Shown one piece after another: positions 137 through 64,000 of a stretch of 64,000 bases of DNA. Position 1 is the stretch's first letter; each line of letters starts with the position of its first letter. The notes below the pieces were generated by a model that was not told the origin of the DNA, ran no database searches, and was given only the letters and a program-made list of their open reading frames with translations. Made by a program: the position numbers and the translations under genes. The stretch lies in assembly GCA_964451495.1 (NCBI GenBank), contig CAYVHS010000005.1, positions 8,926-72,925 of the forward strand, written 5' to 3'. Source of the stretch: an uncultured Bdellovibrionales bacterium. GTDB taxonomy: Bacteria; Patescibacteriota; Minisyncoccia; Moranbacterales; UBA1568.

Positions 137-3100
137 TTACTCAGCCTGATTAATCACATGCAAAAATTCTTTGCTACTTTTATCCCAACTAAAGTTTTCA
201 GCCCAAATGCGCGCCTCCTTACTCAGCTCTTCGCGTAAACTCCTATCACGGATAATGAGCGATATTTTTTCCGCAAATCCTTTCGTATCGCCATATTCTA
301 CGAGGTAGCCCGTATCAGCATCTTTCACCGAATCACGCAGTCCTGGGATGTCAGACGCGACTACCGGTGTACCACAAGCATTTGCCTCAATAACAACAAT
401 CCCCCAACCTTCCATAAATGATGGGTTCGCGAGCACCCAAGCGCTTTGGAGAAGTCGGAGTTTCTCCGCTTCATCCACTTTACCAAGAAAGTGGATTTTG
501 TCCGAGTTGAAGCCCAGATCACGAGCAAGGCGTTTGAGATAGTTTTCTTCATCCCCGCCTCCGGCAATCAGCAGTCTGGCGTCTGGACGTTCTTTCACGA
601 CCAAGTGGAATGCTCGGATCAACACATCGACTGATTTATATGCTTTGAGTCGACCGAGATATAGCACCGTTGGCGTTATACTCTTTTCACCACGCACCAG
701 CTCATGGAGGTGTACTCCTGGATGAACTATTTCGATGCCGGCCGATCCGATACCAAGGGCTTTCATCTCTAGCTCGCTTGAACGAGAAACCGTAATAAAC
801 TTTACGCGCTTGTAAATAATTGGCATCAGCCCCTTTTCGAGAAAGCCTGCGAGGAGCGCTAGTGGTTTGATGAGAGAATGACGAAATACCTCCTGGTGAA
901 CATGGTGCATCAGGCAGTATACCGGTTCCTTGACATACAAAGGCGCAAAAAATGGAATACCATTTTCACAATCAATAACCAAATCGTACCGCCCACGGAA
1001 ACGAACCATATAGTACAAGAAAGCCCAAACATAAACCAAATAAAATCCGCCCCGTCGTATAATATTGATACCGTCAATGGTTTCATACCGCTTCTGTAGA
1101 CCATCATTCCCACAAAAGATTGTCACCTGGTTACCATCGGCGACCCATGTCTTGGCAATCTCGTGTACATAAAGCTCCGCTCCGCCCGCGTAGAGGTGTT
1201 TCAGATCACGCCAGTTAAAAATAAGAATGCGTTTACCGGTTGTGAGTGGCGCCGTGGTGTTCGGAAAACCATTATAAAAAATCCCTATGAAATCACGAAA
1301 TCCTCGCTCAAGAAAAGGGAATTGACGTTCCAAGAAGTGCAACACCGCAAAGGAGAGAAAAATACCCAGGCTCACGAAAAAGACAACATTCACAACAGTA
1401 CCCAGAGAGTCATGATGCATCCAAACACTCCAAATAAGTGCCAGCGAACCAAATATAGATACGAGAGAAAAAAGATATCGTCGCTTGGCTAAGTGATAAA
1501 GAGCAATGACATTTCCTAGTGTAAACAAGGCAATACCAGAGGTATAGAGGAGAAGCCATGGAGTAACTGCCCTTGCTTTTTCACCCAAAAGAATTGGGGT
1601 TACATAATGTCCCAATACACCAAGGAGAGTAACGCCGATACTGACGAGTACAAAAACACTGACAAAGATAGAATCGAAGATTTTCTGTGAACTCTGACGC
1701 AAACCTTCCTTTTGACTCACCAGCGTAATCATAAATACCGTTGGGAGCGATCCGAGGAAATAAATCATTTTCCCAATCAAAGAAAGGAGCGCGTACTGAC
1801 CAGCGGTTGTCTCATCAAAAAAGTGTTTAACGAGGAGTATATCAGCACTCAAAAAAACAACAGCTGAGATACTTGTCAAAATAGCAGAAAAGAAAAACTT
1901 ACCAGGAAAAGCCACTCCAGTTCCCGCCTGTTTGGACCCCCCTATCAAAGCGGCTCGTTTTGGAACAAACACCCAGCCAATACTAGCAGAAACGAGCAGA
2001 GAAAGTGGAATAACCGCGTACATCCACTCAGACCATTGGAAGAAAAAGAAGACCACTGCCAAGCCCATCTTTGCCAGAGTTTCGGTCATATTAATCATGG
2101 CTACAGCAGCGAAGCGCAGATTTCCGAGAAGGTATCCCTGATAACTTGATGTCATCAATCCAAAGACGAGCGCTCCGGTAAAAATGAGAAATACTAGATT
2201 ATCATTGACCCGGAAAAACTTCTCCAGAAATGGGGCTGCTACCACCCAACCCATAGACAAGAATAAGACCGTAAGAATTCCATTCTGAAAAGCAAAAACG
2301 AAAAATCTATTGGCGACATGCTGCCCTTTACGAGCGCTCAAAAAAACCGTCTGATGATTGACTGTTGATCCAAAAGCTCCAAAGAAGATACCCGCAATGT
2401 ACCAAAGCGTATTTATGAGAGTCACCAATGCCAACTGAGAGAAGGAAAGGACGTAACCAAGAAAGGCATTAAAGAGAAAATTAACAAAATTTGATAGCAC
2501 AAAAACAATCATCAACACTCCTTTTCCTGAAAAGATAAAATCTATCCACAGAACGGGAAATACTTTCTGCAGCGTTTCTTTGAGAGCAAAGATTTGACTT
2601 TCTGCAAGTAGCTTTTTATTCGCCGCTACTGTTTCTTCATTCTTTTTTGGAATAGCCTTTTTCACATGAAGCCCATGGAGAGTCTTTTCCCAGTAGTGTG
2701 GATTTCTAATGAGCTGGTAGAGTCCGATGAAGGCTGCCCAACTGACGAGGAACCAATAAAACGGCACCAGGAAAACGTACTTCACCACCTGGAAATGTTC
2801 GCGCTTGGCCGTCCCAATCATGTAGTAATAGAGATAGAGGAAGTTGCCGAAAATGAGTGAAAGGGCAGCAAAGTAAAAAACCAGTGGTGGGAAAAGCGCC
2901 TCGAGAGTCGGTCCGACAATGATATAGAGTGTAAAGTACGAAAGCGTGGCCAACCAGAGAAATGGATTGATAAACATGAACCCGATCTTGCCACCGACCA
3001 CCAGCTGGAAAATAAGCGCATGCCATCCGTTCTCACGCACAAAAGTGACCGGGTGACGCATGTGCACGAGATATGTCTGCATGTAGCCCTTGATCCAGCG

Positions 3101-4819
3101 CGAGCGTTGACGAATCCAATTCTTCACATCACTGTTTGCTTCTTCGAGCGTCACCGAATCGATAATAGCCGTCCGGAATCCACGCTTGAAGATACGAGCG
3201 CCGAGATCGCAATCCTCCGTCACATTAAATGGATCCCAGCCTTCTAGCTCCAAAAGATCACGGGTGCGGAAATGATTACTCGTACCACCGAGCGGAATCG
3301 AGGTATTGATGGACTGGAGTCCAGGCAAAATGACATCAAACCAGAGCGAGTACTCGGCTGTAAAAAGCCGTGTGAGTAAATTCTGGTGGGGATTGAAATA
3401 GTTGAGCTTGGCCTGCAGACAACGAACCGAGGGATGCGAATTTTGAAATCCCAAATACGCCTTTTTCAACTGGGACGGCTCCGGGATATCTTCGGCATCA
3501 TAAATGACGACATACTCCCCGCTCGCAAAAGAGAGTCCGTAGTTACAGGCTTTCGGTTTAGTCTTGGGCATGGAGTGGGGCACCACGAGGATTCGGAAAT
3601 AGCCGGGTAGATCCATAGCTCGAGCAGCAGCAATCGTTTCAGGATCATTTTCCTCGAGCAGCAGCAGGACGTCGAGCTTGGTCTTTGGCCAGTCGAGTGC
3701 CTGCATGGCGGCTACGAAAGTAGGGAGCATATGTGCTTCCTTGTAAAGTGGGCAGAGTACAGAATAGACCGGCAGTAGTTGTTCATCGATGGCCACTAAC
3801 TCTTCGTCAGTACTCGAGAGTTCTGGCGGTGTCTTCAAACTCTTCATCACGAGAAAGAGATTGAAGAGAGCGTCGATGAAATAGATAGCCGTGAGGATAG
3901 CCACAATCAAGATGCCAGTATGAAGTGGGCTGACTATGAGTCCTATCAGAATGAAGAAAAATACTCCCCAAATGAGGTTGCGTTGCCAGGGAGCAAACGT
4001 ACGAAGAGCCGAGATGTGGTGATGGAGCGTTGTGTGTGTCACAAAGCGCTGTCTATTGTGGGCGATACCAGCCCCTACCATCGAGTCACCATGTTCCGGT
4101 TTGATAACAAATGGAGTGTGGCCTTGCCACTTGAGTCGCAGCGCACTCCACCCTATTTCAAACAGGGCGCGAAATGGGTTTAGCTTGGAGACACCAGCCT
4201 GACGTTCGGCAAACGTGATGTCTACCGAGTCGATGACGTAACCATAGTTACGAGCAGATAAGAGGAACTCCATGTCAAAAGTCCACGGTGTCGGGTGAAG
4301 AGTTACCTCACGAAGAATTTTTTTGCGGAACACCTTGAGACCAGACTGGCTGTCACAGTGGAGGTCATGGAGCAAACGAGTAAAAACGAGGGTAAATGTT
4401 TTGCTCAAAAGCCTGCGGAGCCAGTTGGTATCGTGTTCTCTGCGATTAGCCACTACAATGTCTGCTCCCTGTGCAAGACGGTCGAGCATCCCAGGGAGTG
4501 CTTCGGGCGGATACTGGAGATCGGCATCAATCATGGCCACCACGTCAAACCGCGCCAACGCAAATCCTTTGATAAGTGATTGGGCTTTGCCCCGATTTCC
4601 ATCCTTCAGATGACAAATGATGCGAAACGTATCGGCGTACTCGATCGCGAGCGAAGCAATCCGTTCCCGCGTCGCATCAGTAGAATGATCATCAATGAAA
4701 AGGAGCTCTCCTGTAAGTGAGCGCTCTCTGAACACGCGCGCGAGGCGCTTTACCAAAGACTCAACATTCCCCTCTTCGTTGAGTGTCGGGATGACAATAG
4801 AAACTTGATTTTCTGACAT
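137..4819 (-). CDS. Giant multi-domain polysaccharide synthase. In order: GT2 (DPM1-like, aa ~6-240), a second GT2 of processive/cellulose-synthase type with DAED and QRSRW motifs (aa ~350-650), a ~12-14-helix polytopic membrane module resembling a Wzx/MOP flippase (aa ~650-1190), and a C-terminal GT4/GT-B domain with the EX7E motif (aa ~1195-1560)
   Basis: Uninterrupted 1560-aa ORF. Motifs read directly from the translation: VSIVIPTLNEEGNV...DDHSTD...DADLQ (GT2); YDAEDIP...QRSRWIKG (processive GT2); a long hydrophobic multi-helix block; EGWGIVVIEANACGTPVVASD (GT4). Confidence 0.8.
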   Translation of the reverse strand: MSENQVSIVIPTLNEEGNVESLVKRLARVFRERSLTGELLFIDDHSTDATRERIASLAIEYADTFRIICHLKDGNRGKAQSLIKGFALARFDVVAMIDADLQYPPEALPGMLDRLAQGADIVVANRREHDTNWLRRLLSKTFTLVFTRLLHDLHCDSQSGLKVFRKKILREVTLHPTPWTFDMEFLLSARNYGYVIDSVDITFAERQAGVSKLNPFRALFEIGWSALRLKWQGHTPFVIKPEHGDSMVGAGIAHNRQRFVTHTTLHHHISALRTFAPWQRNLIWGVFFFILIGLIVSPLHTGILIVAILTAIYFIDALFNLFLVMKSLKTPPELSSTDEELVAIDEQLLPVYSVLCPLYKEAHMLPTFVAAMQALDWPKTKLDVLLLLEENDPETIAAARAMDLPGYFRILVVPHSMPKTKPKACNYGLSFASGEYVVIYDAEDIPEPSQLKKAYLGFQNSHPSVRCLQAKLNYFNPHQNLLTRLFTAEYSLWFDVILPGLQSINTSIPLGGTSNHFRTRDLLELEGWDPFNVTEDCDLGARIFKRGFRTAIIDSVTLEEANSDVKNWIRQRSRWIKGYMQTYLVHMRHPVTFVRENGWHALIFQLVVGGKIGFMFINPFLWLATLSYFTLYIIVGPTLEALFPPLVFYFAALSLIFGNFLYLYYYMIGTAKREHFQVVKYVFLVPFYWFLVSWAAFIGLYQLIRNPHYWEKTLHGLHVKKAIPKKNEETVAANKKLLAESQIFALKETLQKVFPVLWIDFIFSGKGVLMIVFVLSNFVNFLFNAFLGYVLSFSQLALVTLINTLWYIAGIFFGAFGSTVNHQTVFLSARKGQHVANRFFVFAFQNGILTVLFLSMGWVVAAPFLEKFFRVNDNLVFLIFTGALVFGLMTSSYQGYLLGNLRFAAVAMINMTETLAKMGLAVVFFFFQWSEWMYAVIPLSLLVSASIGWVFVPKRAALIGGSKQAGTGVAFPGKFFFSAILTSISAVVFLSADILLVKHFFDETTAGQYALLSLIGKMIYFLGSLPTVFMITLVSQKEGLRQSSQKIFDSIFVSVFVLVSIGVTLLGVLGHYVTPILLGEKARAVTPWLLLYTSGIALFTLGNVIALYHLAKRRYLFSLVSIFGSLALIWSVWMHHDSLGTVVNVVFFVSLGIFLSFAVLHFLERQFPFLERGFRDFIGIFYNGFPNTTAPLTTGKRILIFNWRDLKHLYAGGAELYVHEIAKTWVADGNQVTIFCGNDGLQKRYETIDGINIIRRGGFYLVYVWAFLYYMVRFRGRYDLVIDCENGIPFFAPLYVKEPVYCLMHHVHQEVFRHSLIKPLALLAGFLEKGLMPIIYKRVKFITVSRSSELEMKALGIGSAGIEIVHPGVHLHELVRGEKSITPTVLYLGRLKAYKSVDVLIRAFHLVVKERPDARLLIAGGGDEENYLKRLARDLGFNSDKIHFLGKVDEAEKLRLLQSAWVLANPSFMEGWGIVVIEANACGTPVVASDIPGLRDSVKDADTGYLVEYGDTKGFAEKISLIIRDRSLREELSKEARIWAENFSWDKSSKEFLHVINQAE

Positions 4820-34008: not shown

Positions 34009-36804
34009 CTACAAATATTTCGCGGTAAAACTTTTCTTGCAAGATTTGAGTTTTTCAGGTGTTCCAGAAAAAACGAGTTCACCACCCTTTTCGCCACCAT
34101 CCGGTCCCAGTTCAATCACCCAATCTGCTGAAGCAATAACATCCACATTGTGTTCAACGACCAGTACAGTGTTACCTTTATCTACCAACGCCTCAAGTAC
34201 CTCGAGCAAGCGACGGACATCTTCGAAATGAAGCCCTATCGTCGGCTCGTCCAGAATATAGAGCGTCTTGCCAGTCGATTTGCGAGCGAGCTCTGTAGCG
34301 AGTTTGATACGCTGTGCTTCGCCACCCGAGAGATTGGTCGCACTTTGCCCCAATACGAGATAGCCAAGACCTACCTCCTCAAGCACTCGGAGTTTCTCTT
34401 CAATTATCGGCTGATCGAGGAAAAAATGTCGTGCCTCGGTCACTGTCATACGGAGCACTTGTGCGATATTTGTCCCGCGATATTCGATTGAGAGAGTCTT
34501 AGCATTATAGCGTGTTCCCTGACAAACTTCACATGGTACATACACATCCGGCAAAAGATACATCTCTATCTTTTTCAGACCACCGCCCTGACAAGCTTCA
34601 CAACGACCACCACGCATATTGAAACTGAAGTGACTAGCTGAGAACTTCTCGCGTTTGGCCTCGGCTGTTTCTGCAAATAAATCCCGGATCATACTAAATA
34701 CTCCGGTATACGTCGCCGCATTAGAGCGAGGGGTGCGGCCGATAGGATCCTGATTGACAGAAATAACCTTGTCGATATTGCCCAATCCGTCTATTTTCTT
34801 GTGTCTGCCCGGCTCAGCCTTGGCATGATAAAAATATTTCGAAAGAGCTCGTGCCAAAATATCGTGCACCAAACTCGATTTCCCAGAACCGGATACTCCC
34901 GCTACCGCGACGAGCATGCCGAGAGGAATCTCTACATCGACATTTTTCAAATTGTGCTCTGTCGCCCCATGAATCGTGATGGCGTCTCCGGATCCTTTGC
35001 GACGCTTTGTTTTTTCAGATACCTCACGTTTACCCGAGAGGTACTGTCCTGTCAAAAGTTTCGAACGCATGAGTTTGTCTGGTGTGCCAGCAAAAATCAC
35101 TTCGCCGCCCTCGCTGCCCGCTCCTGGACCCATGTCTATGATATAGTCAGCTCGTCGCATAATCGCGACATCATGCTCTACGATAACCAACGAATTATTG
35201 GCTGTGCGCAAATCTTCTAGTGCATGGATGAGACGTTCAGTATCCCGATTATGCAGTCCTACGGATGGCTCATCGAGCACATAGATGATTCCAGAAAGCC
35301 CGGATTTCATCTGGACCGAGAGACGAATACGTTGTGCTTCGCCACCAGAAAGTGTGTCCGCGCTCCGGCACAACTCGAGATAGCCCAATCCGACTTTTTC
35401 TACGGCGCGCATGCGTGTTTCCATCTCACTAAAAAGCGGGGAAATGACACTTTTCTCTGCTGATTTTAACAGCTTGCCACAGAGTGGCTCAAGCACCTCC
35501 AAAAATTTTTCCACACTCAGCTCCACGAGCTCATGTATCGAATACTCTCCTACTTTTACCGCAAGCGATTCCGACTTCAGACGCTTTCCCTGGCAAAGAG
35601 GGCAAACACGCGTCAGCATATACGCCTCGATCTCCGCGCGCAAATGATCAGATTTCGTCTCTCGATATTTCCGCTCAAGCAAATGTATCACCCCTGGGAA
35701 AGCGTCTTCTTTACCCTCCTCACCAAATAAAACAATAGAAAGTTGTTTGCTAGAAAATTTCTTGACCGGGGTATCGAGAGAAAACTTGAGACGTTTCGCA
35801 AGATTACGCAGCATAACCATCGGCCCCTGCCCTGCCTGTCGGTCACCGTTCATCTTGCTCCACGGGCGGATCGCGCCTTCGGAAAGAGAGAGGTTCTTAT
35901 TTGGTATGACCAATTCCGGATCAAATTCGAGCGCTACACCCAGACCAGAACATTTCACACAGGCACCATCAGGATTATTGAAAGAGAAGTGGCTCGGAGT
36001 GAACGCTGGTAAAAAAACATCACACGCTTCACAACGATATTCTTCATTATAAATTTTTGTTTCACCGCTGCCATTAACACGAAGCAAGAGCGTCCCATGC
36101 CCTACATGAAATGCTGTTTGCAAAGAATCCAAGATACGCTCTTTATCCGGACGTGCGCGAGAAAGTACGAGTCGATCAATAACCACGAGCATATCCGAAT
36201 GTTCTGTGGCAGATGCTTCTGCTATCGCTTCGGCAACAGAAACTACTTCTCCTCGAAAACAAACGCGTACATACCCCCAAGCGCTTATGAGAGCAAGGGC
36301 CTCTTTTTCCGTTTTCAAGGCAAGCACAGAGCTCTCGGCGAGAAACACAAGTGGCGTCTCGTCAGGTAACTCGAGAATTTCATCTAAAATCTGCCGCACA
36401 CTTTTACGAGAAAGGACTTTGCCACACTGCGGGCAATGCGGTACGCCCAATTTGGCAAAAAGGACTCGCAGATAATCATACACTTCTGTCATGGTCCCCA
36501 CGGTCGATCGTGGACTGCGCGACACACTCTTCTGGTCGATAGAGATGGCCGGCGAGAGATTGCGGATAGCATCGACATCTGGTTTGTCGAAACCATCGAG
36601 GAAATTGCGTGCATACGAAGAAAGCGACTCAACATAACGCCGATTCGCTTCCGCAAAAAGAGTATCGAAAGCCAAGGATGATTTCCCTGATCCAGATAAC
36701 CCGGTAATGACCACAAGGGCATCACGCGGAATATCAACACTCACGTTCTTCAAATTATTGACTCGGGCACCTCGGATTTCAATCACTGAATTTTTCGCTG
36801 GCAT
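34009..36804 (-). CDS. uvrA: Excinuclease ABC subunit A (full-length, with UvrB-binding and insertion domains)
   Basis: Two ABC modules (GLSGSGKSS / [14 protein letters not shown] signatures); Zn modules CPQC...CEAC and CVKC...(~125 aa)...CPLC. Start at the ATG at 36804. Confidence 0.9.
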
Positions 36805-37013
36805 AGAGCGTATGGCTGAGAGCAAAAAATGATACAATTGTTTCTCAGTATACTCGCTTTTCGCGCGACTGTAAAGACTGTGGATAAAGTCAAAATCCAA
36901 ATTTCAAATGCCAAATGAATCTCGCCTCCGCCAGTTGGCGGATGGCGGACTAAGCGCTAAGCCCTAAAAATCCGTTTTGGACATTTTTCACTTTTGATTT
37001 GACTTGATATTCG

Positions 37014-38315
37014 TCATTTGGTTTTTGGGCTTCTCCCGAGAAATTCTTTGCCACGGCGTTTGCGATGAAAGGTGACAGCGAAACGATGGGCCTCGCTATT
37101 GGCCAAAAGAATATTAGCGCGTACATGAGCGAACCCCGGTGGAAGATTGATGATGTCTTTGGGCTGATGACGAGCATCTTTCACGACACCCACCAGGAGA
37201 GGCTGTACTGTTTCTGTTTCTGCAAAAAGCCTTTCTGCTACGCCGAGCTGGAGAAACGATCCGTCCACGATGATAATATCAGGATTCCCCCACTCAGGAT
37301 GTTTCATTCGTCGCTGCATAATCTCTTCGAGCGCAGACAAATCGTTGCCGCCATGCTCGCCACGCAAGATGAATTTCTTGTATGATTCTTTTTCTGGCCT
37401 GCCATCTTGCATCACCACCATCACGCCGACACTCGCCCCGCCACCCAAGTGAGCGACGTCATACGCCTCCATCCGGATACCCTCTACGGCATGATTCCTT
37501 TCTCGCACGTCCTCTTTGATGAGTGCCATGTCCTGAATATGTTGCAAACCAAACAGCGTTCTTTTGATTTCTCCGGCTCGCTCAAACTCGAGCGCATGAG
37601 CAGCCGCTTTCATTTCATTCGTCAGCTGTTTTACCAAAACGCTTTTGCGTCCCTCGAAAAACAAACGGATATGATTGATCATGCGACCATACTCTCGTGC
37701 AGTCACTGCCCCCGTACACACCCCCGGACAGAGACCAATCTGCGCCGAGAAACAAGGCTTGGTCTTTAGCTGGCGCGCCTCGGGCACTGTCTCATACGGC
37801 ATACACGTATCACGAAACGGAAACAACTTGCGCACGATCTTTATCGCCTCACGCAGTCCTGAACCTGATGGGAACGGCCCAAATATATATTTCGTCGGTT
37901 CGATGAATTTTCCTTGTGCGATATCGCGACCGCGCACGATGAGTACTCGTGGAAATGTTTCTTGTGTAATAACAACATGATTGTAGCTCTTGTCATCTTT
38001 CTCATCGGTATTGTAATACGGCTGGTGTTCTTTGATGAGTTTCGATTCGAGGATGAGTGCTTCGAGCACCGAGTCCGTTTTCCGATGCGCGACGAAACAT
38101 ACCTTTTCGAGCATGAGAACAATTTTCGGGCCACGCGTCACAGAAATATCCTGGGCGAAATAGCTCTTCACCCGATCGCGGAGTGACGTCGCTTTACCGA
38201 TATAAAGTAACTTCTTTTCTTGATCCAAGAAGAAATATACTCCCGGGGTTTCCGGCAATACATTCTTTTTCTGAAACATCTTCAGAGGAATAACTTTTTC
38301 CCAGAGTTTCGACAT
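37014..38315 (-). CDS. uvrC: Compact UvrC-like excinuclease (GIY-YIG plus UvrC core; C-terminal HhH region absent)
   Basis: PGVYFFLDQEKKLLYIGKATSLRDRVKSYF (GIY-YIG), PDIIIVDGSFLQLG, AHRFAVTFHRKRR; 433 aa against ~600 aa for canonical UvrC. Confidence 0.7.
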   Translation of the reverse strand: MSKLWEKVIPLKMFQKKNVLPETPGVYFFLDQEKKLLYIGKATSLRDRVKSYFAQDISVTRGPKIVLMLEKVCFVAHRKTDSVLEALILESKLIKEHQPYYNTDEKDDKSYNHVVITQETFPRVLIVRGRDIAQGKFIEPTKYIFGPFPSGSGLREAIKIVRKLFPFRDTCMPYETVPEARQLKTKPCFSAQIGLCPGVCTGAVTAREYGRMINHIRLFFEGRKSVLVKQLTNEMKAAAHALEFERAGEIKRTLFGLQHIQDMALIKEDVRERNHAVEGIRMEAYDVAHLGGGASVGVMVVMQDGRPEKESYKKFILRGEHGGNDLSALEEIMQRRMKHPEWGNPDIIIVDGSFLQLGVAERLFAETETVQPLLVGVVKDARHQPKDIINLPPGFAHVRANILLANSEAHRFAVTFHRKRRGKEFLGRSPKTK

Positions 38316-38989: not shown

Positions 38990-40423
38990 CTACAGCACCT
39001 CAGCCGCAAAATCAGCCAGCCGTGAACGTTCACCACGCTGGAGCGTCACGTGTCCGCTGTGTGGCCAGCCCTTGAAACGATCGACAACATACGTCAACCC
39101 AGAACTGCCTTCAGTCAGATACGGCGTATCAATTTGCGCGATGTTACCCATACAGACCACTTTGGTACCGGGACCGGCACGAGTGATCAGCGTTTTCATC
39201 TGCTTGGATGTCAGATTCTGGGCTTCATCGATGATGAGAAACTTGTTGAGGAACGTCCGGCCACGCAGGAAATTGAGCGATTTGATCTTGATCCGATTGC
39301 GGATCAAATCATGCGTTGCTGCACGACCCCATTCACCGGCATCGACATCGGTCTTGTTGAGTACCTCGAGATTGTCTTCGAGGGCACCCATCCACGGCCC
39401 CATCTTTTCTTCTTCCGTACCCGGCAAAAAACCGATATCTTCCCCTACCGGCACCGTGACCCGAGTCATGATGATTTCAGAGTACCGCTTCAATTCAAGC
39501 ACTTGTGTCAAAGCAGCCGCCAACGTAAGAAGTGTCTTGCCCGTACCGGCCTGGCCGAGCAAACTGACAAAATCAATTTCCGGGTCCATGAGCAAATTGA
39601 GAGCGAAATTCTGCTCCCGATTACGCGCCAGAATACCCCACACTCCATGCTTCGAGTGCGTGTAATCAATCAATGTCTCGAACTGCACGGTCTTTCCATT
39701 TACTTCACGAACGATGGCATAGAGTGGCTGTTCCCCTTCCTGATAAATGAACTCGTTGACCAGCATCTTGGGACAGAGCGGGCCATGGACACGATAGAGC
39801 GTTTGGGCTTCGCGCTTCCAAGACTCCATACCTTCGCCATGTTTATCCCAGAAGTTTTCAGGCAATTCCATCGAACCAGTGTACAAAAGATCAGTGTCCT
39901 CCATCACCTTATCGTTGAAATAGTCTTGTGCTTCCAGTCCGAGAGCTCGGGCCTTGATACGCATATTGATATCCTTGGAGACCAATATAACGGCCCGTTT
40001 CGGAAACTGTCTCTGCAAATGTATGACAACGGCCAGGATCTGGTTGTCAGCTTTGGCCGTAGGCAAACTAACCGGTAGTTCACCCGGGATGGATTCCGTC
40101 TGAATGAACAACCGACCACGCGCTTGCTTGCGAGAAGGTCCATAAAGCGGAATACCACTTACGAGATCAGTATGACCATTGACGATTTCATCCAGAATCC
40201 GTGTCACTTGTCGTGCATTACGGGCTACCTCTGATAAGCCCGTCTTGTGATTATCGAGCTCTTCGAGTGTCATGATGGGGAGATAAACATCATGCTCCTC
40301 AAAACGATACGGGCTCGATGGGTCATGCAACAAGACATTGGTATCCAGGACAAACCACTTCTTTACCTTTGCTACTGGCTTTGCTTTGGTTGGGACTTTA
40401 GCAGCCACGATGTTCTCCTTCAC
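38990..40423 (-). CDS. PhoH-like ATPase with an N-terminal PIN domain (PhoH2/YlaK type)
   Basis: FVLDTNVLLHDP (PIN), GQAGTGKT (Walker A). The first codon is GTG; a second GTG at 40408 lies 6 nt after AAGGAG and is the more likely start. Confidence 0.8.
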   Translation of the reverse strand: MKENIVAAKVPTKAKPVAKVKKWFVLDTNVLLHDPSSPYRFEEHDVYLPIMTLEELDNHKTGLSEVARNARQVTRILDEIVNGHTDLVSGIPLYGPSRKQARGRLFIQTESIPGELPVSLPTAKADNQILAVVIHLQRQFPKRAVILVSKDINMRIKARALGLEAQDYFNDKVMEDTDLLYTGSMELPENFWDKHGEGMESWKREAQTLYRVHGPLCPKMLVNEFIYQEGEQPLYAIVREVNGKTVQFETLIDYTHSKHGVWGILARNREQNFALNLLMDPEIDFVSLLGQAGTGKTLLTLAAALTQVLELKRYSEIIMTRVTVPVGEDIGFLPGTEEEKMGPWMGALEDNLEVLNKTDVDAGEWGRAATHDLIRNRIKIKSLNFLRGRTFLNKFLIIDEAQNLTSKQMKTLITRAGPGTKVVCMGNIAQIDTPYLTEGSSGLTYVVDRFKGWPHSGHVTLQRGERSRLADFAAEVL

Positions 40424-57039: not shown

Positions 57040-57612
57040 GTGCCCACGAAGAGGAGTATACTAGAAAGTGTCGTATCATTCATCTGCACGCCTATGGAAC
57101 ACAATCAACCCACCGAACAGGAAATTCCCCGTCTCCAAGCCCTGGCTCTGGCTGCTCCAGAATACCTGGGATCACCGACTTCCCTCATCATCCATACGGT
57201 ATTTTTTGTCGGGATTTTTGTGCTACAACTTTTCGGCTTCTCGTTCGACCAGGTCATGCTCATCCTGACCACGCTCGTCTCACTCGAAGCTATCTATCTT
57301 TCGCTCTTCATCCAGATCACTGTCAATCAGCATGCCAGACAGATCGAGGAAGTCAGCGAAGACGTGGAAGAGCTCGGCGAGGATGTCGAGGAGATTTCCA
57401 AGGACATCGATATCATCCAAGAAGACGTCAAAGAGATTGGTGAGGATGTCGAGGATATTTCCGAGGATGTGGAAGAGCTCGGCGAAGAAATCGAACAAGA
57501 TGACCATGAAGACGCTATCGAACGCACCGAGGATCAGAAACGTATCGATCGCATCGAATCTGCCATCGAAATTCTCCTCAAAGAAATTCAGGCTATCAAA
57601 AAAGAAAAGTAG
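57040..57612 (+). CDS. Membrane protein with an acidic tandem-repeat tail (E-D-V-E-E-[LI]-[GS] x7) and a C-terminal coiled coil
   Basis: Two TM helices, then VSEDVEELGEDVEEISKDIDIIQEDVKEIGEDVEDISEDVEELGEEIEQDD. The likely start is MEHNQ at 57094. Confidence 0.55.
   Translation: MPTKRSILESVVSFICTPMEHNQPTEQEIPRLQALALAAPEYLGSPTSLIIHTVFFVGIFVLQLFGFSFDQVMLILTTLVSLEAIYLSLFIQITVNQHARQIEEVSEDVEELGEDVEEISKDIDIIQEDVKEIGEDVEDISEDVEELGEEIEQDDHEDAIERTEDQKRIDRIESAIEILLKEIQAIKKEK
57340..57500 (+). repeat. Degenerate ~21-24-nt tandem repeats (GAAGAYGTSGARGAGMTYKSC...) encoding the acidic repeat of gene 57040..57612
   Basis: About seven imperfect in-frame copies. They also create spurious antisense ORFs (57280..57507, 57327..57527). 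Confidence 0.6.
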
Positions 57613-57678: not shown

Positions 57679-58182
57679 TCATATCTTGCGACTGTCGTAG
57701 GCCCAGTGGAGCAATGCCTGACGCTGACGTGGTCGACAGAAGATATCACCCCTCCGGCAATGACGTGCGAGCTGAGCAATATGCCTCTGTATGGCTCGCC
57801 ATCGTTTGACCTGCCTTTCATCCTCGCCCGGAATGCGCCGGCCCATATAGTAGCGACAATACCACTGAAACCATCCCCGAGGATCATCGGGAAATATCCA
57901 TCCTTTGGCTCGCCAGACTGCGAGGGATTGGCTCGCATCAACATTGAAGCAATTGAGGCTTGGGTTTCGTTTCTCTGGGGAAAGTTTGGCATGAGAAAAC
58001 CAGTTTCCAGGAAATTCTTCTCGACAATCCGTCATATATTTACCACCAAAAACACCCAAAGAAAGCATCTGCTCGGGTGTCAGATCTGGCTTGAAATCAG
58101 GATGAAAATGCTTGCCTATCGGCTCGGAAAGCTCATACTGATATCCATCCTGCATCGTATCGTGCACCACGACTCGTTTCAT
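57679..58182 (-). CDS. Conserved hypothetical protein (W/R-rich; KGWIFPDDPRGWFQWYCRYYMGRR motif)
   Basis: 167-aa ORF; the motif looks like a conserved domain, but the family cannot be named from memory. Confidence 0.5.
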   Translation of the reverse strand: MKRVVVHDTMQDGYQYELSEPIGKHFHPDFKPDLTPEQMLSLGVFGGKYMTDCREEFPGNWFSHAKLSPEKRNPSLNCFNVDASQSLAVWRAKGWIFPDDPRGWFQWYCRYYMGRRIPGEDERQVKRWRAIQRHIAQLARHCRRGDIFCRPRQRQALLHWAYDSRKI

Positions 58183-58193
58183 AGGAGAAGGGT

Positions 58194-58673
58194 TTAGGAT
58201 TTTTTCAATGCTTTCACATCAGCGAGGATTTTTTCAGCGTGATCATCAGGTTTTACATTGCTATAGATCTGAGCGATCTTGCCGGTCGGTGCGATGAGAA
58301 ATGTCGTCCGGAACACACCCATATATTCACGACCCATGAATTTCTTTTTGCCCCAAACGCTATAGAGTGTCACGACTTTCTTTTCTTCATCAGAGAGGAG
58401 CGTGAATGGCAACGAAAATTTCTCGATAAATTTACGGTGTTTGAGTGCTGAGTCAGGGGAAACACCGAGTACCACGACACCGGCGCGTTTGAACTTGGCA
58501 TACCCATCACGAAACCCGCACGCCTCCATCGTACAGCCAGGAGTATTGTCTTTGGGATAAAAATACAGAACAACCCATTTGCCTTCGTACTGCTTGAGCG
58601 TGTGGATGACATCATTCTGATCAGGCAAGCTCATCGCTGGTGCTTTCTGACCTATTCTCGGTGGCATGTGCAT
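58194..58673 (-). CDS. bcp: Thiol peroxidase / peroxiredoxin Bcp
   Basis: VVLYFYPKDNTPGCTMEACGFRD carries the peroxidatic and resolving Cys. Confidence 0.85.
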   Translation of the reverse strand: MHMPPRIGQKAPAMSLPDQNDVIHTLKQYEGKWVVLYFYPKDNTPGCTMEACGFRDGYAKFKRAGVVVLGVSPDSALKHRKFIEKFSLPFTLLSDEEKKVVTLYSVWGKKKFMGREYMGVFRTTFLIAPTGKIAQIYSNVKPDDHAEKILADVKALKKS

Positions 58674-58722
58674 AGGATTGAATTCATAAATAATAAAAGG
58701 ATTGGTAACTACTACATCTGCG

Positions 58723-58977
58723 TCATAGAGCTCCTTCTCTCTTAAGCAATCGGGCTTTGACTAGTGTACCGCCACGATTATACTGCCCGAGCGTCCCATC
58801 ACTACGGATGACCCGATGGCATGGAATGGCTGGATTGAGATTCTTGCGCATAATAGAGCCGACCGCACGAGCTGCTCCCGGATTGCCAGCCTGAGCGGCT
58901 ACTTCAGCATACGAGAGCGTCTCTCCTCTAGGGATAGTGGCTACGATACCCAAAACTTTTTCGGTGAATGTCTTCAT
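58723..58977 (-). CDS. ogt: Single-domain methylated-DNA-protein-cysteine methyltransferase (C-terminal MGMT domain only, active-site Cys retained)
   Basis: 84 aa; IPRGETLSYAEVA...NPAIPCHRVI carries the PCHR active site. No N-terminal domain. Confidence 0.75.
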   Translation of the reverse strand: MKTFTEKVLGIVATIPRGETLSYAEVAAQAGNPGAARAVGSIMRKNLNPAIPCHRVIRSDGTLGQYNRGGTLVKARLLKREGAL

Positions 58978-58985
58978 GTGTTTTA

Positions 58986-60566
58986 CTACACTGTTACCAG
59001 TCCGAGCTTCCGCAGACGCGATCGGATAGCACCAGGATTACGTCCGAGCTTCTCACTCATCTCTTTCATCTGCTTACCTCGAGAGAATAATCGTTTGAGC
59101 TCCTTCTCTTCTTCCGGATTCCAGGCACGATAGGCATTGGTATGTTTTTCACGAATCTTTTCGAGGGAATAGGATTTTTCTTCCTCTCCTTTTTTCTGAG
59201 ATTCTTTTTTTGGCTTTTTCTCTTTTGTTTTTTTGTGCGAACCTATTTTGCCACCACAAACGATGATGAAATTATGTTCTAACTCATGGATTTTCTCTTT
59301 CGAATATGCACTGAAAGTCTCACGAGCTTCACGAGAGGCCTCGCGGAATATACAGTCCTGCTCGAGCACGGTCGGATGGACTTGGAACGCTCGCTCATTC
59401 AGGCCAATCAAATGGACCCCCGACAAACGCCTGACGCGAGAAAGAGCCACATACCCCTGGCCAAATTCGAATGTCTGCGAAAGATCCATGACAGCCGCGT
59501 CGAGACTGACTCCCTGGCTTTTATGGATCGTCATGGCCCACGCGAGACGGAGCGGCAGCTGGATGACTTTGGCCAGTGCTTCCTCGCCCTCGGCGATGAC
59601 CCATTCCATGGGTTCGACCAAGATACGACGGCCATCATGTGTCTCGACGAGCGGATAACGAGTTGTACTATCAAAACCAATCACCGTACCAAGTGTCCCA
59701 TTGGCAAATCCTTCATTCGGATTGTTCTTGGTGAACATCACTACGGCACCATCTTTGAGCTCGAGGCGCTCTGGCGAGAGACACCCGCGTTTGAGTGCAT
59801 CGGTCAGCCCGGCCGGCCCACGATCAGCCATGGTAAATCCGTACGTCTTGCCAGGCAGTTTCATGAGCTCGAGTGCGTTGATCTTGTCCACATCGACATT
59901 ATGAGAAAAAAGCCTCGTCGTGTTTTCGGGTAATTCCTCGGTAGCCAGCATCCGCATTTCGACGCGTTCTCGATGTATCGACAAACAGGCGTTACTGCGA
60001 ATAGCCGTCAGTACTTCGAGGAAAGCATCGTCCTCCTGACGATGCTGTTCTGTGAGATAGCATGTCCGGAACCCCATCATCTGCCAAGCGTCAGACTGGA
60101 AAGCGAATTGCATCTTCTCGCCGCCTTTCGCCACCGGCGGCAACTGGAAAAAATCCCCTACGACGATGACCTGAAGCCCGCCAAAGGGCAAATGGCCCTT
60201 GCGCACACGACGACACACGGCTTCGACCAAAGCAAAGACATTGCCATCGAGCATGGATATTTCATCGATGATGAGGACCTTGGCTTTCTTGATACGCTTA
60301 GCAGTACGGCCATTCCCGGCGATGTCTCGAATCAAATCTTTATCAACCACGCGTGCAATACCGATACCGCTCCACGAATGAATAGTCATGCCATGGATAT
60401 GCGTCGCAGCGATACCCGTCGAAGCCGTGACGGCGTAATCGATCTCATGCTCGCGCAAATATTCCGTATACCTGTTGATGGTATGCGTCTTGCCTGAACC
60501 CGCCTCACCAGTCAGAAAAACACTGGCGCCGGTCTTGAGTATCGTGAGCGCTTCTTCTTGGGTCAT
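58986..60566 (-). CDS. Pif1-family SF1B DNA helicase with a C-terminal basic linker and HTH-like tail
   Basis: FLTGEAGSGKTH, ASTGIAA, TIHSW, IIDEISM, VGDFFQLPPV, EQHRQ, TIHKSQG, YVALSR; C-terminal K/E-rich linker followed by GRNPGAIRSRLRKLGL. Confidence 0.8.
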   Translation of the reverse strand: MTQEEALTILKTGASVFLTGEAGSGKTHTINRYTEYLREHEIDYAVTASTGIAATHIHGMTIHSWSGIGIARVVDKDLIRDIAGNGRTAKRIKKAKVLIIDEISMLDGNVFALVEAVCRRVRKGHLPFGGLQVIVVGDFFQLPPVAKGGEKMQFAFQSDAWQMMGFRTCYLTEQHRQEDDAFLEVLTAIRSNACLSIHRERVEMRMLATEELPENTTRLFSHNVDVDKINALELMKLPGKTYGFTMADRGPAGLTDALKRGCLSPERLELKDGAVVMFTKNNPNEGFANGTLGTVIGFDSTTRYPLVETHDGRRILVEPMEWVIAEGEEALAKVIQLPLRLAWAMTIHKSQGVSLDAAVMDLSQTFEFGQGYVALSRVRRLSGVHLIGLNERAFQVHPTVLEQDCIFREASREARETFSAYSKEKIHELEHNFIIVCGGKIGSHKKTKEKKPKKESQKKGEEEKSYSLEKIREKHTNAYRAWNPEEEKELKRLFSRGKQMKEMSEKLGRNPGAIRSRLRKLGLVTV

Positions 60567-60687
60567 AAAAAATTATTCATCTTGTACTGTACTATCATAC
60601 GTGATAGACCAGGCTCTGGCAAAGCAAAGAAAAAGAGCGGGCGTGTACATGTACATATCCGCTCCTCGGCTGATTCCCAGCCATACT

Positions 60688-61044
60688 TCACTGACCAATG
60701 AAACGACGCGTACTCGTATACAGCCGTCCATTCAAACCCCCTTTGGCGCAACGCACGAAATGGAACACTTGGCGCCATTTGCCTCTCCCGAGTCGGTAGA
60801 TGATCTCGATAGCATCATCACCATGATAGGGGCGTCCCTCGTGATTGATAGAAAAATGCTCGACAGCCATATTGGTCGATGAGCATTCGGGAAGCATACC
60901 GTGATGATGCTCTAGAATGAGCGCGGCAACCTTTTTCTGCATCAGAGCTGAGAAACGCTCTTTCAAAAAACAGGTATTCTCAAATAATTGCCCCATCTCT
61001 TCGGGAGAAAAAACCACAGCGACACCACACATTTGGCCTTGCAT
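60688..61044 (-). CDS. Hypothetical protein with an His-rich EHHHG..P.CSSTN motif (possibly a degenerate JAB/MPN-like metal site)
   Basis: 118 aa; the motif resembles, but does not match, HxHx7Sx2D. Confidence 0.4.
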   Translation of the reverse strand: MQGQMCGVAVVFSPEEMGQLFENTCFLKERFSALMQKKVAALILEHHHGMLPECSSTNMAVEHFSINHEGRPYHGDDAIEIIYRLGRGKWRQVFHFVRCAKGGLNGRLYTSTRRFIGQ

Positions 61045-61169
61045 ATTATCCTCCTTTCACTTGGCTAGACTTCGATTGAAAAAGGTACAGCACATGCACC
61101 TCTAGCATAGTACAAATGGCACAAAATAGCATCTCTCTACAAAACAAGATTCAATAAAAGAAAAAGCAA

Positions 61170-63755
61170 TTATTGTTTCAAAATCTTTCTGAGATATTCA
61201 CCGGTATATGAACCCTTTTTCACGACCACTTGTTCGGGTGTGCCGCAAGCGACTACTTGTCCACCCGCTGCTCCACCCTCGGGGCCAATATCGATGATAT
61301 AGTCGGCACTCTTGATGAGGTCCATGTTGTGTTCGATGACGAGAACAGTATTGCCCTTGACCACGAGACGATCGAGAATCTCGATGAGCTTTCTCACGTC
61401 TTCATAATGCAGTCCGATAGTCGGTTCATCGAGGAGATAGATCGTACGTTCGACATGTTGACGATACAGTTCGGAAGAAATCTTCACACGTTGAGCTTCG
61501 CCACCAGAGAGTGTCGTAGCTGACTGTCCTACCTTCAAATAGCCGAGACCGACTTCATTGAGGGTTTTGAGACGATCGGCGATAGCGGGAATATCATAAA
61601 AAAACGCGTAGGCCTCTTCGACGGTCATTTCGAGTACTTCATAGATATTCTTATGCTTGTATCTCACTTCAAGCGTTTCCTTGGTGAAGCGCTTGCCGTC
61701 ACAAACATCGCACTGTACATACACGGTCGGCAAAAAATGCATTTCAACTGCGATGAAACCGTTGCCTTCACAGGTTTCACAGCGCCCCCCAGGACGATTG
61801 AAAGAAAAACGACCCGCCTTCCACCCGCGTACCCTGGCTTCTTCACTCGCCGCAAACAAATCACGGACATGCGTCCAGGCACCAGTGTACGTCGCTGGGT
61901 TGGAACGTGGCGTCCGACCAATCGGACTCTGATCGATAAGCACAGTACGAGAGAGATATTCCGTCCCGGTAAATGTCTGGCAATTGAAAACCTTGTTAGA
62001 TTTGTACCGGCGATCGAAACGGGCTTCGAGATTCTTATGAAGGATCTCATACATGAGAGTCGATTTGCCCGATCCAGAAACACCCGTAATCACACTGAAA
62101 CGACCGAGTGGAATATCGACATTCATGTTCTTGATATTGAACAGATTGCCACCGCGAATCTTGATGGTACCCTTATCCTTCTCCCGTCGCTTGGTTGGGA
62201 TAGCAATCTTTTCTTCACCGCGCAGGTATGCGAGCGTGAGTGATCCAGAAGTATTCTTTTTCGCCGTGAGGAGATCATGAAGATATCCTGAGACCACGAC
62301 CTCACCGCCATGGACACCAGCACCTGGACCGATATCGATAATGTAGTCCGAAGCAAATATCGTATCCTCGTCATGCTCGACAACGATGATAGTATTGCCC
62401 AAATCACGGAGAGATTTAAGCGTGCTAATAAGACGATCGTTATCACGCTGGTGAAGTCCGATGGTCGGTTCATCGAGGACGTAGAGTGCTCCGACCAATT
62501 TGGACCCGAGCTGTGAAGCGAGACGGATACGCTGTGCCTCGCCACCCGAGAGTGTGTTGGCCCGACGATCGAGCGAGAGATAATTGAGCCCAACATCGAG
62601 GAGGAACTGGACCCGTCCGCCAACTTCGCGTAATACCACCGCGGCGATTTGACGCTCACGCTCTGAAAGTTCGAGCGTATCGAAAAAATGTTTGACATCT
62701 GCGGTCATCATGGCCGTCACCTGGACGATATTTTTCCCGCCAATTTTCACATGCAGTGCTTCTTCGCGAAGGCGTGAGCCGTGACAGACTTCGCACGGCT
62801 CATCACCAAAGAAATGCTTGGTTCCGAGACCATTGCAGGCCTCACAGGCACCGTACGGCGAATTGAAAGAAAAAAGGCGTGGCTCTACTTCGGGATAAGA
62901 AAAACCATCATAGGGACAGGAAAATTTGGAAGAAAGAACAAAGTTTTCTTTCCCAATATGAATATTCACCAAACCATCGCTCTCTTCAATCGCCCGCTGT
63001 ACTGCCTCGGAAAGTCGCTCGTTTGATGTCTCGGGAAATTTCTCAAATTCAATAAGTGGCATTTCATCGACCACGAGGTCAATATCATGCTTCTTGTTTT
63101 TCGAAAGAAGAATCTGTTCACGGAGACTGAAACGATTCCCATCAAGAAAAATTTCACTGAAACCCTTGCTCAAAGAATTATAGAGCAACTGGTAGTACTC
63201 GCCCTTGCGACCACGTACGACGGGAGCCGTAATCGTGAGGACTTGCTTGCCTTTTTTCCCCAGAGCCAATGCCTGCTGTACCCGCTCTGATACGATCTCG
63301 AGCATCTCCTCGGGTGAAAGCTTTTGAATCTCACGATCACACACGAGACAGTGTGGCCGGCCGAGCCTCGCATACAAAACGCGCAAATAATCATAGATCT
63401 CAGTAATAGTCGCAACGGTCGAGCGCGGATTGCGACTCGCTGATTTCTGATCGATAGAGATAGCCGGTGAAAGTCCCAGAATCTCATCGACATCTGGTTT
63501 CTGCATGGTATTCAGAAACTGCCGCGCATAGGCGGAAAGTGATTCGACATAGCGACGCTGGCCCTCGGCAAAAATCGTATCGAACGCGAGAGACGATTTA
63601 CCAGACCCAGAAAGTCCCGTACACACAACCATCGCATTGCGAGGCATGTCGACCGAAATATTCTTCAAATTGTGTGTGCGGGCGCCACGGACCGAAATCC
63701 ATTCTGACGGCCCAGACGACGCATCAGCACTCTGATGCCCATGCTTCTTGGCCAT
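61170..63755 (-). CDS. uvrA2: UvrA paralog lacking the insertion domain (Zn-module-2 CxxC pairs only 14 aa apart); UvrB-binding-like domain retained
   Basis: 861 aa. Two ABC modules. [16 protein letters not shown]...[11 protein letters not shown] (UvrB-binding-domain-like). [23 protein letters not shown], against a ~125-aa spacing in the uvrA at 34009..36804. Confidence 0.85.
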
Positions 63756-64000
63756 AGTACGTATTCATTTACACGAAAACTCAGTATAGCTCTTTTTGGC
63801 GAGACTATCAAGGGACCAAAAGAAGACACCGAAGCGAGAGGAGCTAGAAGCAATCAAGAAGAATGCGGTACTCCTCTTCACGTTCCGGATGAACAACTAG
63901 TTCGATATGTTCCTCATTATCAAGCGCGGAAACAAAAGCAGGAAAATCAACCAGCCAATCCAAATTGACGAGAAAACGCGAAGTCGTCAGTTTCATGCTC

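Follow-up and report, generated by a model that had tools for sequence, protein, structure and literature searches.

A stretch of 64,000 nt from the chromosome of a Candidatus Moranbacteria (Patescibacteria) host (contig CAYVHS010000005.1; hereafter, the window) encodes at its right end a second UvrA that lacks the insertion domain (hereafter, UvrA(dID)), together with a small protein of 118 aa (orf118), a Pif1-family helicase, an alkyltransferase (MGMT), and a peroxiredoxin (Bcp). These genes probably represent a vertically inherited, lineage-specific DNA-damage gene cluster on the Moranbacteria chromosome, and not one machine. The old and robust linkage is that of uvrB with uvrA(dID), and Pif1, MGMT, and the rest are additions within one sub-clade. 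The genes at the locus are listed below with their matches to Pfam (PF) and NCBIfam (NF) families; the ydjC fragment was mapped from L001, which is the window DNA itself, extended beyond its right end.

57679-58182, minus strand: orf167, the sixth gene, 11 nt after bcp
58194-58673, minus strand: Bcp/PrxQ, 159 aa (PF00578, 5e-40; NF006960, 173.5 bits against a cut-off of 140)
58723-58977, minus strand: MGMT, 84 aa (PF01035, 1.4e-28)
58986-60566, minus strand: Pif1-family SF1B helicase, 526 aa (PF05970, 9e-36; 2B domain, PF21530)
60688-61044, minus strand: orf118, 118 aa, without family match
61170-63755, minus strand: uvrA(dID), 861 aa (NF001503, 1239.5 bits against a cut-off of 1147)
63844-64000, minus strand: ydjC, 3' end only, as the gene continues past the window

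The initial annotation had described five consecutive minus-strand open reading frames (ORFs) with short gaps, and these are indeed present, separated by 49 nt (bcp/mgmt), 8 nt (mgmt/pif1), 121 nt (pif1/orf118), and 125 nt (orf118/uvrA(dID)). Their shared orientation, which had been taken as a link between the genes, carries no weight because nearly every gene of the window is on the minus strand (20 of the 21 with a family match).

A second UvrA without the insertion domain

The proposed UvrA paralog was confirmed as a true second UvrA in the window, from which the insertion domain is cleanly missing. In the alignment to our reference, the Geobacillus stearothermophilus (B. stearothermophilus) UvrA structure 2R6F, residues 1-313 of UvrA(dID) correspond to chain residues 8-303 and residues 314-860 to 417-957, and ~113 residues of the 2R6F chain, the insertion domain, have no counterpart. 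The family of the insertion (DNA-binding) domain, PF17755, had no match in the 861-aa protein. The CxxC pairs of zinc module 2 that flank the deletion remain, and nine residues stand in place of the insertion domain. Exactly nine residues were also found between the two halves of zinc module 2 in 119 of the 120 best homolog clusters (77-86% identical, bar one that is identical to the query; median length 861 aa), and because this junction is fixed across them the deletion is not an assembly accident. At 80 further metagenome loci, the UvrA relatives (66-85% identical) were all without the insertion domain, with -5 to +66 extra residues relative to the query.

The two ATP-binding cassette (ABC) ATPase modules of UvrA(dID) are complete, with Walker A motifs at 47 (GLSGSGKS) and 558 (GVSGSGKS), ABC signatures (LSGGE) at 402 and 749, and Walker B motifs (LDEP) at 427 and 775, and the protein scores above the NCBIfam equivalog cut-off for UvrA (NF001503). 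The UvrB-binding domain, PF17760, matched residues 169-267 (2.5e-19) at the level of the domain, not of contact residues. Zinc modules 2 and 3 have all four Cys each. Zinc module 1 reads C136xxC139 ... C280xxD283 (CxxC...CPYD), and its fourth ligand position is Asp, not Cys, in 110 of 120 homologs (CPYD, residues 280-283).

On this domain composition, UvrA(dID) is classed as a class-I-like UvrA lacking only the insertion domain. It shares with the class I UvrA of E. coli and G. stearothermophilus the two ABC modules, the UvrB-binding domain, zinc modules 2 and 3, and the genomic linkage to uvrB; in the uvrBA operon of Bacillus subtilis, uvrB is followed by uvrA in the same order as here. It differs from class I UvrA in that the insertion domain is naturally gone and replaced by nine residues, a state that is fixed in the lineage, and in the Asp of zinc module 1 and the coexistence with a full-domain UvrA. 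The natural deletion matches nearly residue for residue that of an engineered E. coli UvrA lacking residues 290-400. The engineered protein no longer discriminates damaged DNA from undamaged, and with plasmid templates its global repair is impaired; a short substrate is still incised, and repair shows a stronger bias to the Mfd-dependent repair of the template strand (PMC3025350).

Class II UvrA-like proteins (Deinococcus UvrA2, DrrC, Ecm16) are likewise second UvrA-family ATPases beside a canonical one, and some, including Ecm16 and DrrC, provide resistance to drugs (PMC10192343). They are without the UvrB-binding domain and zinc module 1 and need the insertion domain, which Ecm16-type proteins require to bind DNA, whereas UvrA(dID) has the reverse set (PMC10192343). 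Class II membership of UvrA(dID) was rejected on this opposite domain architecture. A text search of the literature returned nothing relevant on a natural UvrA without the insertion domain or on UvrA in Patescibacteria.

Conservation of the gene neighborhood

The neighborhood of uvrA(dID) was profiled in 11 close loci (L001 and L090-L099) and in distant loci, the latter having a UvrA <79% identical. For uvrB, the counts are limited to loci whose sequence extends at least 4.5 kb upstream, and the distant pif1 count to those with at least 5 kb downstream.

uvrB upstream of uvrA(dID) on the same strand: close loci 4/4; distant loci 31/37, with a median gap of 0.9 kb
pif1 downstream of uvrA(dID): close loci 7/11, at 0.6-5.2 kb; distant loci 0/41
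mgmt near uvrA(dID): close loci 6/11; distant loci 1/73
ydjC near uvrA(dID): close loci 8/11; distant loci 0/73
VOC/glyoxalase gene near uvrA(dID): close loci 5/11; distant loci 0/73

In all, uvrB lies upstream on the same strand at 35 of the 41 informative loci, and this linkage persists down to 66% UvrA identity. It is the old linkage because it is held in distant loci while pif1 and mgmt are confined to close ones; UvrA identity is 83% or more at all seven pif1-positive loci. Of the close loci, only the window copy has an adjacent bcp, which is otherwise found in the neighborhood in L084.

Within the sub-clade (UvrA at least 83% identical), the gene order is uvrB, two unassigned genes, mgmt, ydjC, uvrA(dID), a variable slot, and pif1, as seen in L090, L091, and L092, with ydjC missing from the last. 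Genes of the orf118 and orf167 families and VOC/glyoxalase genes occupy the slot, which in one case has a cassette of dinB and an S24 peptidase gene. This cassette (L174, 8328-10040) encodes an IMS/DinB Y-family polymerase and a LexA/UmuD-like S24 peptidase on the opposite strand, along with a methyltransferase.

Beyond the right end of the window, L001 encodes YdjC at 2015-2716 (PF04794, 2.4e-24) and the C-terminus of UvrB at 2-589 (PF12344, UVR), so that upstream of ydjC come two genes without assigned function (116 and 291 aa) and then uvrB. This pair of genes (~110 and ~290 aa; L001, 678-1884), located between uvrB and mgmt/ydjC, overlaps by 20 nt, has no Pfam match for either member, and is also kept upstream of mgmt/ydjC in L090, L091, L092, L093, L098, and L174.

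Unrelated genes are kept in the same stretch as well, namely those for DUF948, DUF2238, YdjM, and a small membrane protein, as is expected because of general synteny. The ydjM gene, which is LexA-regulated in E. coli, follows pif1 in L084, L090, and L096. The DUF948-like gene (57040-57612, plus strand) is the sole plus-strand gene of the stretch and encodes a membrane and coiled-coil protein, in whose coding sequence a 21-nt repeat (7 aa, EDVEELG-like) occurs five times, at 57344-57494; its homologs accompany the neighborhood in L086, L173, and L176.

From the side of Pif1, at least 80 loci were sampled with one genome per species (Pif1 32-65% identical; the source genome is not among them), and these represent many Patescibacteria classes as well as Acinetobacter, Psychrobacter, Bifidobacterium, and Bacteroidales. 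At the 80 listed Pif1 loci, all from other genomes, neither uvrA(dID) nor bcp nor orf118 adjoins Pif1; L071 has a mgmt-like gene just upstream, and L073 has a UvrA-like gene 4 kb off on the other strand. A check proposed in the initial annotation, whether Pif1, the 118-aa protein, and the second UvrA are neighbors in other genomes, was positive for close relatives only, and negative in the distant uvrA(dID) loci (pif1 in 0/41) and in the 80 listed Pif1 loci (0). In L084, where Pif1 is 69% identical, the genes are arranged as uvrA(dID), several unrelated genes, mgmt, an M23 peptidase gene, bcp, a small ORF, orf167, and pif1. In L086 and L088, Pif1 (64-67% identical) is encoded in unrelated surroundings.

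The full-domain UvrA and a short UvrC are encoded elsewhere in the window:

34009-36900, minus strand: full-domain UvrA, 963 aa (PF17755, 2.7e-24; PF17760, 3e-14; NF001503, 1227.8 bits)
37014-38315, minus strand: short UvrC, 433 aa (GIY-YIG, UVR, and UvrC RNase H domains; TIGR00194, 294.5 bits against 285.45)

The 963-aa UvrA is 44-48% identical to the 861-aa copy. The uvrC gene is directly upstream of the full-domain uvrA, and the two UvrAs are linked to different partners of nucleotide excision repair, the full-domain copy to uvrC and UvrA(dID) to uvrB. The short UvrC had no domain match other than GIY-YIG, UVR, and RNase H-like, and it barely passed TIGR00194. A PIN-PhoH fusion protein is encoded upstream of uvrC (38990-40423, minus strand), and such a fusion is also found directly upstream of or near pif1 in L086 (6232-7635) and L088 (15218-16657).

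The initial annotation could not assign the locus to any named defense system, and PADLOC agreed, giving generic ATPase and helicase homology only. The mad3 and mad8 models matched the C-terminal ATPase of UvrA (5.6e-92 and 2e-37) and RecD-like defense models matched the Pif1 helicase core (~1e-20); bcp, mgmt, orf118, and orf167 had no PADLOC match, and no other system component was detected. No tRNA, flanking repeats, or GC shift was found around the cluster in the 64-kb window, the rest of which encodes a Mur ligase, a penicillin-binding protein, type IV pilus parts, MgsA, an M17 peptidase, transporters, and glycosyltransferases. The last include a single ORF of 1560 aa (137-4819, minus strand) with two GT2 and one GT4/GT1 glycosyltransferase domains. 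Both a defense island (matches to generic ABC and SF1 cores only) and a mobile island (even GC content, without tRNA genes or flanking repeats) were rejected.

The proteins encoded around uvrA(dID)

That orf118 is a real gene is shown by its differences from L003: of 61 changed nucleotides, 42 fall on the third position of a codon, and the changed codons comprise 29 synonymous vs 17 non-synonymous ones. The protein had no match in Pfam, NCBIfam, PADLOC, or PHROGs. A word-indexed search returned three relatives, and a profile search against 1.84 billion cluster representatives returned 17 matches, of which ~15 are full-length proteins of 117-158 aa. In the alignment of these 17 sequences, only H48 of the three consecutive His is nearly invariant, and the best-conserved stretch is the C-terminal WRQVFHFVR...GGLxGxLYTxxRR. 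The AlphaFold model built with this alignment (predicted local distance difference test (pLDDT) 88, predicted template modeling score (pTM) 0.82) confidently predicts a long helix packed on an antiparallel sheet; an earlier model from four close homologs (pLDDT 45.6) was discarded. A Foldseek search of the model against PDB and BFVD gave no match at E ≤0.001 and no MPN fold, the top matches being NTF2-like/cystatin-like rolls that were not significant (template modeling score ~0.4). A weak sequence match to the CaMKII association domain (E 0.18) is a lead only. The protein had been described as degenerate JAB-like, a description that finds no backing in a conserved HxH...S..D pattern, an MPN fold, or a Pfam match. 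A JAB/MPN metalloprotease was rejected, as only H48 is near-invariant in the 17 members and the model had no MPN match.

A hidden Markov model of the orf118 family, run over all ORFs of the 177 loci, matched only just downstream of uvrA(dID), in L001, L090, L095, L096, L173, L174/L175, and L176/L177. L002 and L003 are also positive, and are too short to show upstream content. Of the 11 close loci, whose sampling made no reference to orf118, four have a family member. Between L173 and the window, UvrA is 86% and Pif1 80% identical, and the orf118-family protein 37%. Judged from these sequences, the family is small, fast-evolving, and fixed in its position 3' of uvrA(dID).

The helicase passed both Pfam thresholds (PF05970, 123.9 bits vs 25.9; PF21530, the 2B domain, 28.5 vs 23.9), its best solved relatives are human and yeast PIF1 (E 2e-72), and its stretch LPFGGLQVIVVGDFFQLPPV fits the Pif1 signature motif. 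It has the same helicase core and 2B domain as human PIF1 (6HPT), yeast Pif1 (5O6B), and Bacteroides Pif1 (5FHD), and unlike these it continues into a Lys-rich linker of ~40 aa and a Myb/HTH-like (helix-turn-helix) C-terminal domain of ~50 aa:

58989-59159, minus strand: C-terminal Myb/HTH-like tail of Pif1, residues ~470-526, from sequence matches

An HTH-like tail had been noticed earlier, and as a prediction it stands. The motif AYxxWxxEEExxLxxLFxxGxxxKEIAxxLGRxxGAIRSRLKKLGL is kept in 15 of 15 aligned Pif1 homologs, residues 470-522 matched the phage family phrog_323, a 'transcriptional regulator' (8e-8), and the match to Myb_DNA-binding (E 3.6e-4) is under the Pfam threshold. The tail is likely a DNA-binding domain of the HTH type. 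Linker and tail are conserved across the Patescibacteria branch, and the matches of the Acinetobacter relatives cover them too. By family membership, the window Pif1 would be expected to unwind DNA in the 5'-3' direction and to resolve G-quadruplexes.

We found >8000 Pif1 homologs, and the best 120 clusters are 53-100% identical at 99-100% coverage, most of those that bear a name being labeled Moranbacteria. Homolog names are also what places the window in Candidatus Moranbacteria. Pif1, said to be sporadic in bacteria, is not so in this phylum. Close Patescibacteria-type Pif1 proteins (45-65% identical) also occur on contigs of metagenome-assembled genomes labeled Bdellovibrionales, Alphaproteobacteria, or Gammaproteobacteria (L004-L006, L015, L025, and L026), and these labels are probably binning or labeling errors. 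A text search of the literature gave nothing relevant on Pif1 in the Candidate Phyla Radiation.

The MGMT aligned only to the C-terminal domain of its relatives (PF01035 positions 2-81; residues 89-169 of the 171-aa Ogt model); at 84 aa it is without the N-terminal domain and does not have the two-domain AGT/Ogt architecture. Its active site, IPCHRVI, is intact, and PCHR is kept in 12 of 12 homologous ORFs recovered from the loci. The AGT active site is defined as I/V-PCHR-V/I-V/I with a nucleophilic Cys (PMC10779285), and by this defining motif the protein is a minimal true alkyltransferase. Alkyltransferase-like (ATL) proteins, which bind UvrA directly (PMC10779285) and hand alkyl lesions to it, share the AGT fold reduced to the C-terminal domain, and relatives of the window encode their MGMT between uvrB and uvrA. 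In ATL proteins, however, the Cys is replaced (PWHR or PAHR), whereas the catalytic Cys is kept in the window MGMT and every homolog, and an ATL assignment was rejected.

Bcp has the two-cysteine motif GCTMEAC (peroxidatic and resolving Cys) and passes the NF006960 equivalog cut-off, by which it is a thioredoxin-dependent peroxiredoxin of the BCP/PrxQ type. The orf167 product had no match in Pfam, NCBIfam, PHROGs, PADLOC, or PDB, either as a single sequence or as a profile. Its homologs, 60-75% identical, are encoded next to pif1 in L084 (7481-7984) and in the slot between uvrA and pif1 in L090 (6170-6679), L095, and L174 (6482-6982). They also occur in L014, L037, L141, and L157, and in other Patescibacteria far from pif1 and uvrA(dID), and the protein has an invariant GWFQWYCRYYxGRR and several invariant Cys and Trp.

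Transcription signals were predicted in the gaps between the genes:

63783-63811, minus strand: promoter-like site, TTGATA/17 nt/TATACT, 10 of 12 consensus matches, in the 88-nt gap before uvrA(dID)
60625-60668, minus strand: terminator-like hairpin after orf118, GAGCGG...CCGCUC with a U-run (-15.3 kcal/mol, z -1.8)
60594-60622, minus strand: promoter-like site before pif1, TTGCCA/17 nt/TATGAT, by consensus match

The hairpin after orf118 is also the inverted repeat I12, and L002 and L003 share its stem and T-run but not its loop. Before pif1, L004, L095, L096, and L174 have TTGATA, ~17 nt, and then TGGTAGGAT, and in three of the four (L004, L095, and L174) a T-run precedes this promoter-like pattern. 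From the gaps, the promoter-like sites, and the hairpin, we infer that the genes appear to form three transcription units, which are uvrA(dID), orf118, and pif1-mgmt-bcp-orf167, with orf167 probably the last gene of its unit. No LexA-type palindrome common to the upstream regions of pif1, uvrA, and uvrB was evident by eye, which was not a formal motif search.

Interpretation of the cluster

In a lineage-specific cluster of separately acting DNA-damage genes, the old core would be uvrB and then the second UvrA without the insertion domain. Because its ATPase modules, zinc modules, and UvrB-binding domain are kept, UvrA(dID) most likely still dimerises and binds DNA, and would load UvrB, and the full-domain UvrA by uvrC presumably does ordinary global excision repair. 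One sub-clade would then have gathered mgmt, ydjC, the orf118-family gene, orf167, VOC/glyoxalase genes, occasionally dinB and an S24 peptidase gene, and pif1. Each enzyme probably works in its own pathway: UvrA/UvrB would serve excision repair, MGMT would transfer alkyl groups directly, Bcp would remove peroxides, and Pif1 would unwind G-quadruplexes or other replication obstacles while tethered to DNA via its Myb-like tail. The best-supported view of the two UvrAs is that UvrA(dID) may still load UvrB with less damage discrimination of its own and that the full copy would search globally, because the engineered deletion is copied, the UvrB-binding domain is kept, and uvrB is adjacent. The initial annotation had considered an accessory repair or xenobiotic-response island; what remains of it is the lineage-specific accretion of repair genes around uvrB-uvrA(dID), and a defense or mobile xenobiotic-resistance reading finds no support.

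Several points weigh against this reading. The genes uvrB, mgmt, uvrA, VOC, dinB/S24, and pif1 recur in one 10-kb stretch in at least six lineages, and mgmt, bcp, orf167, and pif1 stay together even though their order differs between the window and L084. This recurrence goes beyond simple inheritance and hints at co-regulation or selection for proximity. In addition, the promoter and terminator calls are consensus matches, which are as frequent in shuffled sequence.

Synteny without a functional theme could also account for the arrangement, since the small, streamlined genomes of Patescibacteria keep gene order among close relatives. In line with this, linkage decays with divergence, the unrelated DUF948, DUF2238, ydjM, and small membrane protein genes are kept in the same stretch, Pif1 is encoded elsewhere in L086 and L088 despite 64-67% identity, and bcp adjacency is limited to the window lineage and L084. 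However, the slot repeatedly takes in damage-related genes (VOC/glyoxalase, dinB + S24), the uvrB-uvrA(dID) linkage reaches down to 66% identity, and mgmt, bcp, orf167, and pif1 are together after rearrangement, and we consider plain synteny an unlikely explanation.

It is doubtful that the genes form an integrated module, in which a single class of lesion or nucleic-acid structure would be the joint target of UvrA(dID), orf118, Pif1, and possibly MGMT, and orf118 or MGMT would provide the target recognition lost with the insertion domain. The occurrence of the orf118 family only directly 3' of uvrA(dID), even at ~30% identity while UvrA stays ~85%, is what such a module has in its favor, and a partner-directed UvrA is mechanistically plausible, given that E. 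coli UvrA without residues 290-400 supports Mfd-directed repair (PMC3025350) and that alkyltransferase-like proteins bind UvrA directly (PMC10779285). Yet the orf118 family is found in only 4 of the 11 close loci and Pif1 in no distant locus, separate promoter- and terminator-like signals lie between the genes, and MGMT keeps its catalytic Cys and is therefore not an ATL. The nucleic-acid surveillance module of Pif1 and the second UvrA that had been suggested earlier is disfavored by the same absence of pif1 (0 of 41 distant loci), by the lack of a dID-type UvrA beside the 80 listed Pif1 genes, by the promoter-like site of pif1 itself, and by a uvrA-pif1 spacing that varies from 0.6 to 5.2 kb.

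An anti-phage defense or mobile xenobiotic-resistance island based on a UvrA-like ATPase and a helicase is close to refuted, as the mad3, mad8, and RecD-like PADLOC matches that could speak for it, next to the drug resistance conferred by Ecm16 and DrrC (PMC10192343), are to generic cores, the architecture of UvrA(dID) is opposite to that of Ecm16 and UvrA2, and a core-like gene, 77-86% identical across Moranbacteria, lies between housekeeping flanks without integrase, tRNA, repeat, or GC anomaly.

The lineage-specific cluster is made of known repair families, and no new system is needed to explain it. What it exposes is a natural, strongly conserved UvrA without the insertion domain; the analysis also adds a new, very small protein family linked to uvrA(dID) and shows that Pif1 proteins ending in a Myb-like tail are widespread among Patescibacteria. 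The points of interest are the fixed, uvrB-linked UvrA(dID) and its small orf118-family neighbor. Very tentatively, Patescibacteria might keep two sub-functionalised class-I UvrAs, with a full copy for the genome-wide search and a uvrB-linked dID copy that is delivered by a partner, either Mfd at stalled RNA polymerase or an orf118-family protein. The dID copy would then be without intrinsic damage discrimination because it has shed the insertion domain, and the idea of delivery by Mfd rests on the engineered E. coli UvrA lacking residues 290-400. If true, bacterial excision repair would have a natural branch that is directed by partners and uses an accessory protein not seen before. The insertion domain is needed to discriminate damaged from undamaged DNA in global repair and less so in transcription-coupled repair (PMC3025350), and a uvrB-adjacent UvrA(dID) beside a full UvrA is a natural experiment on the uncoupling of damage search from UvrB loading.

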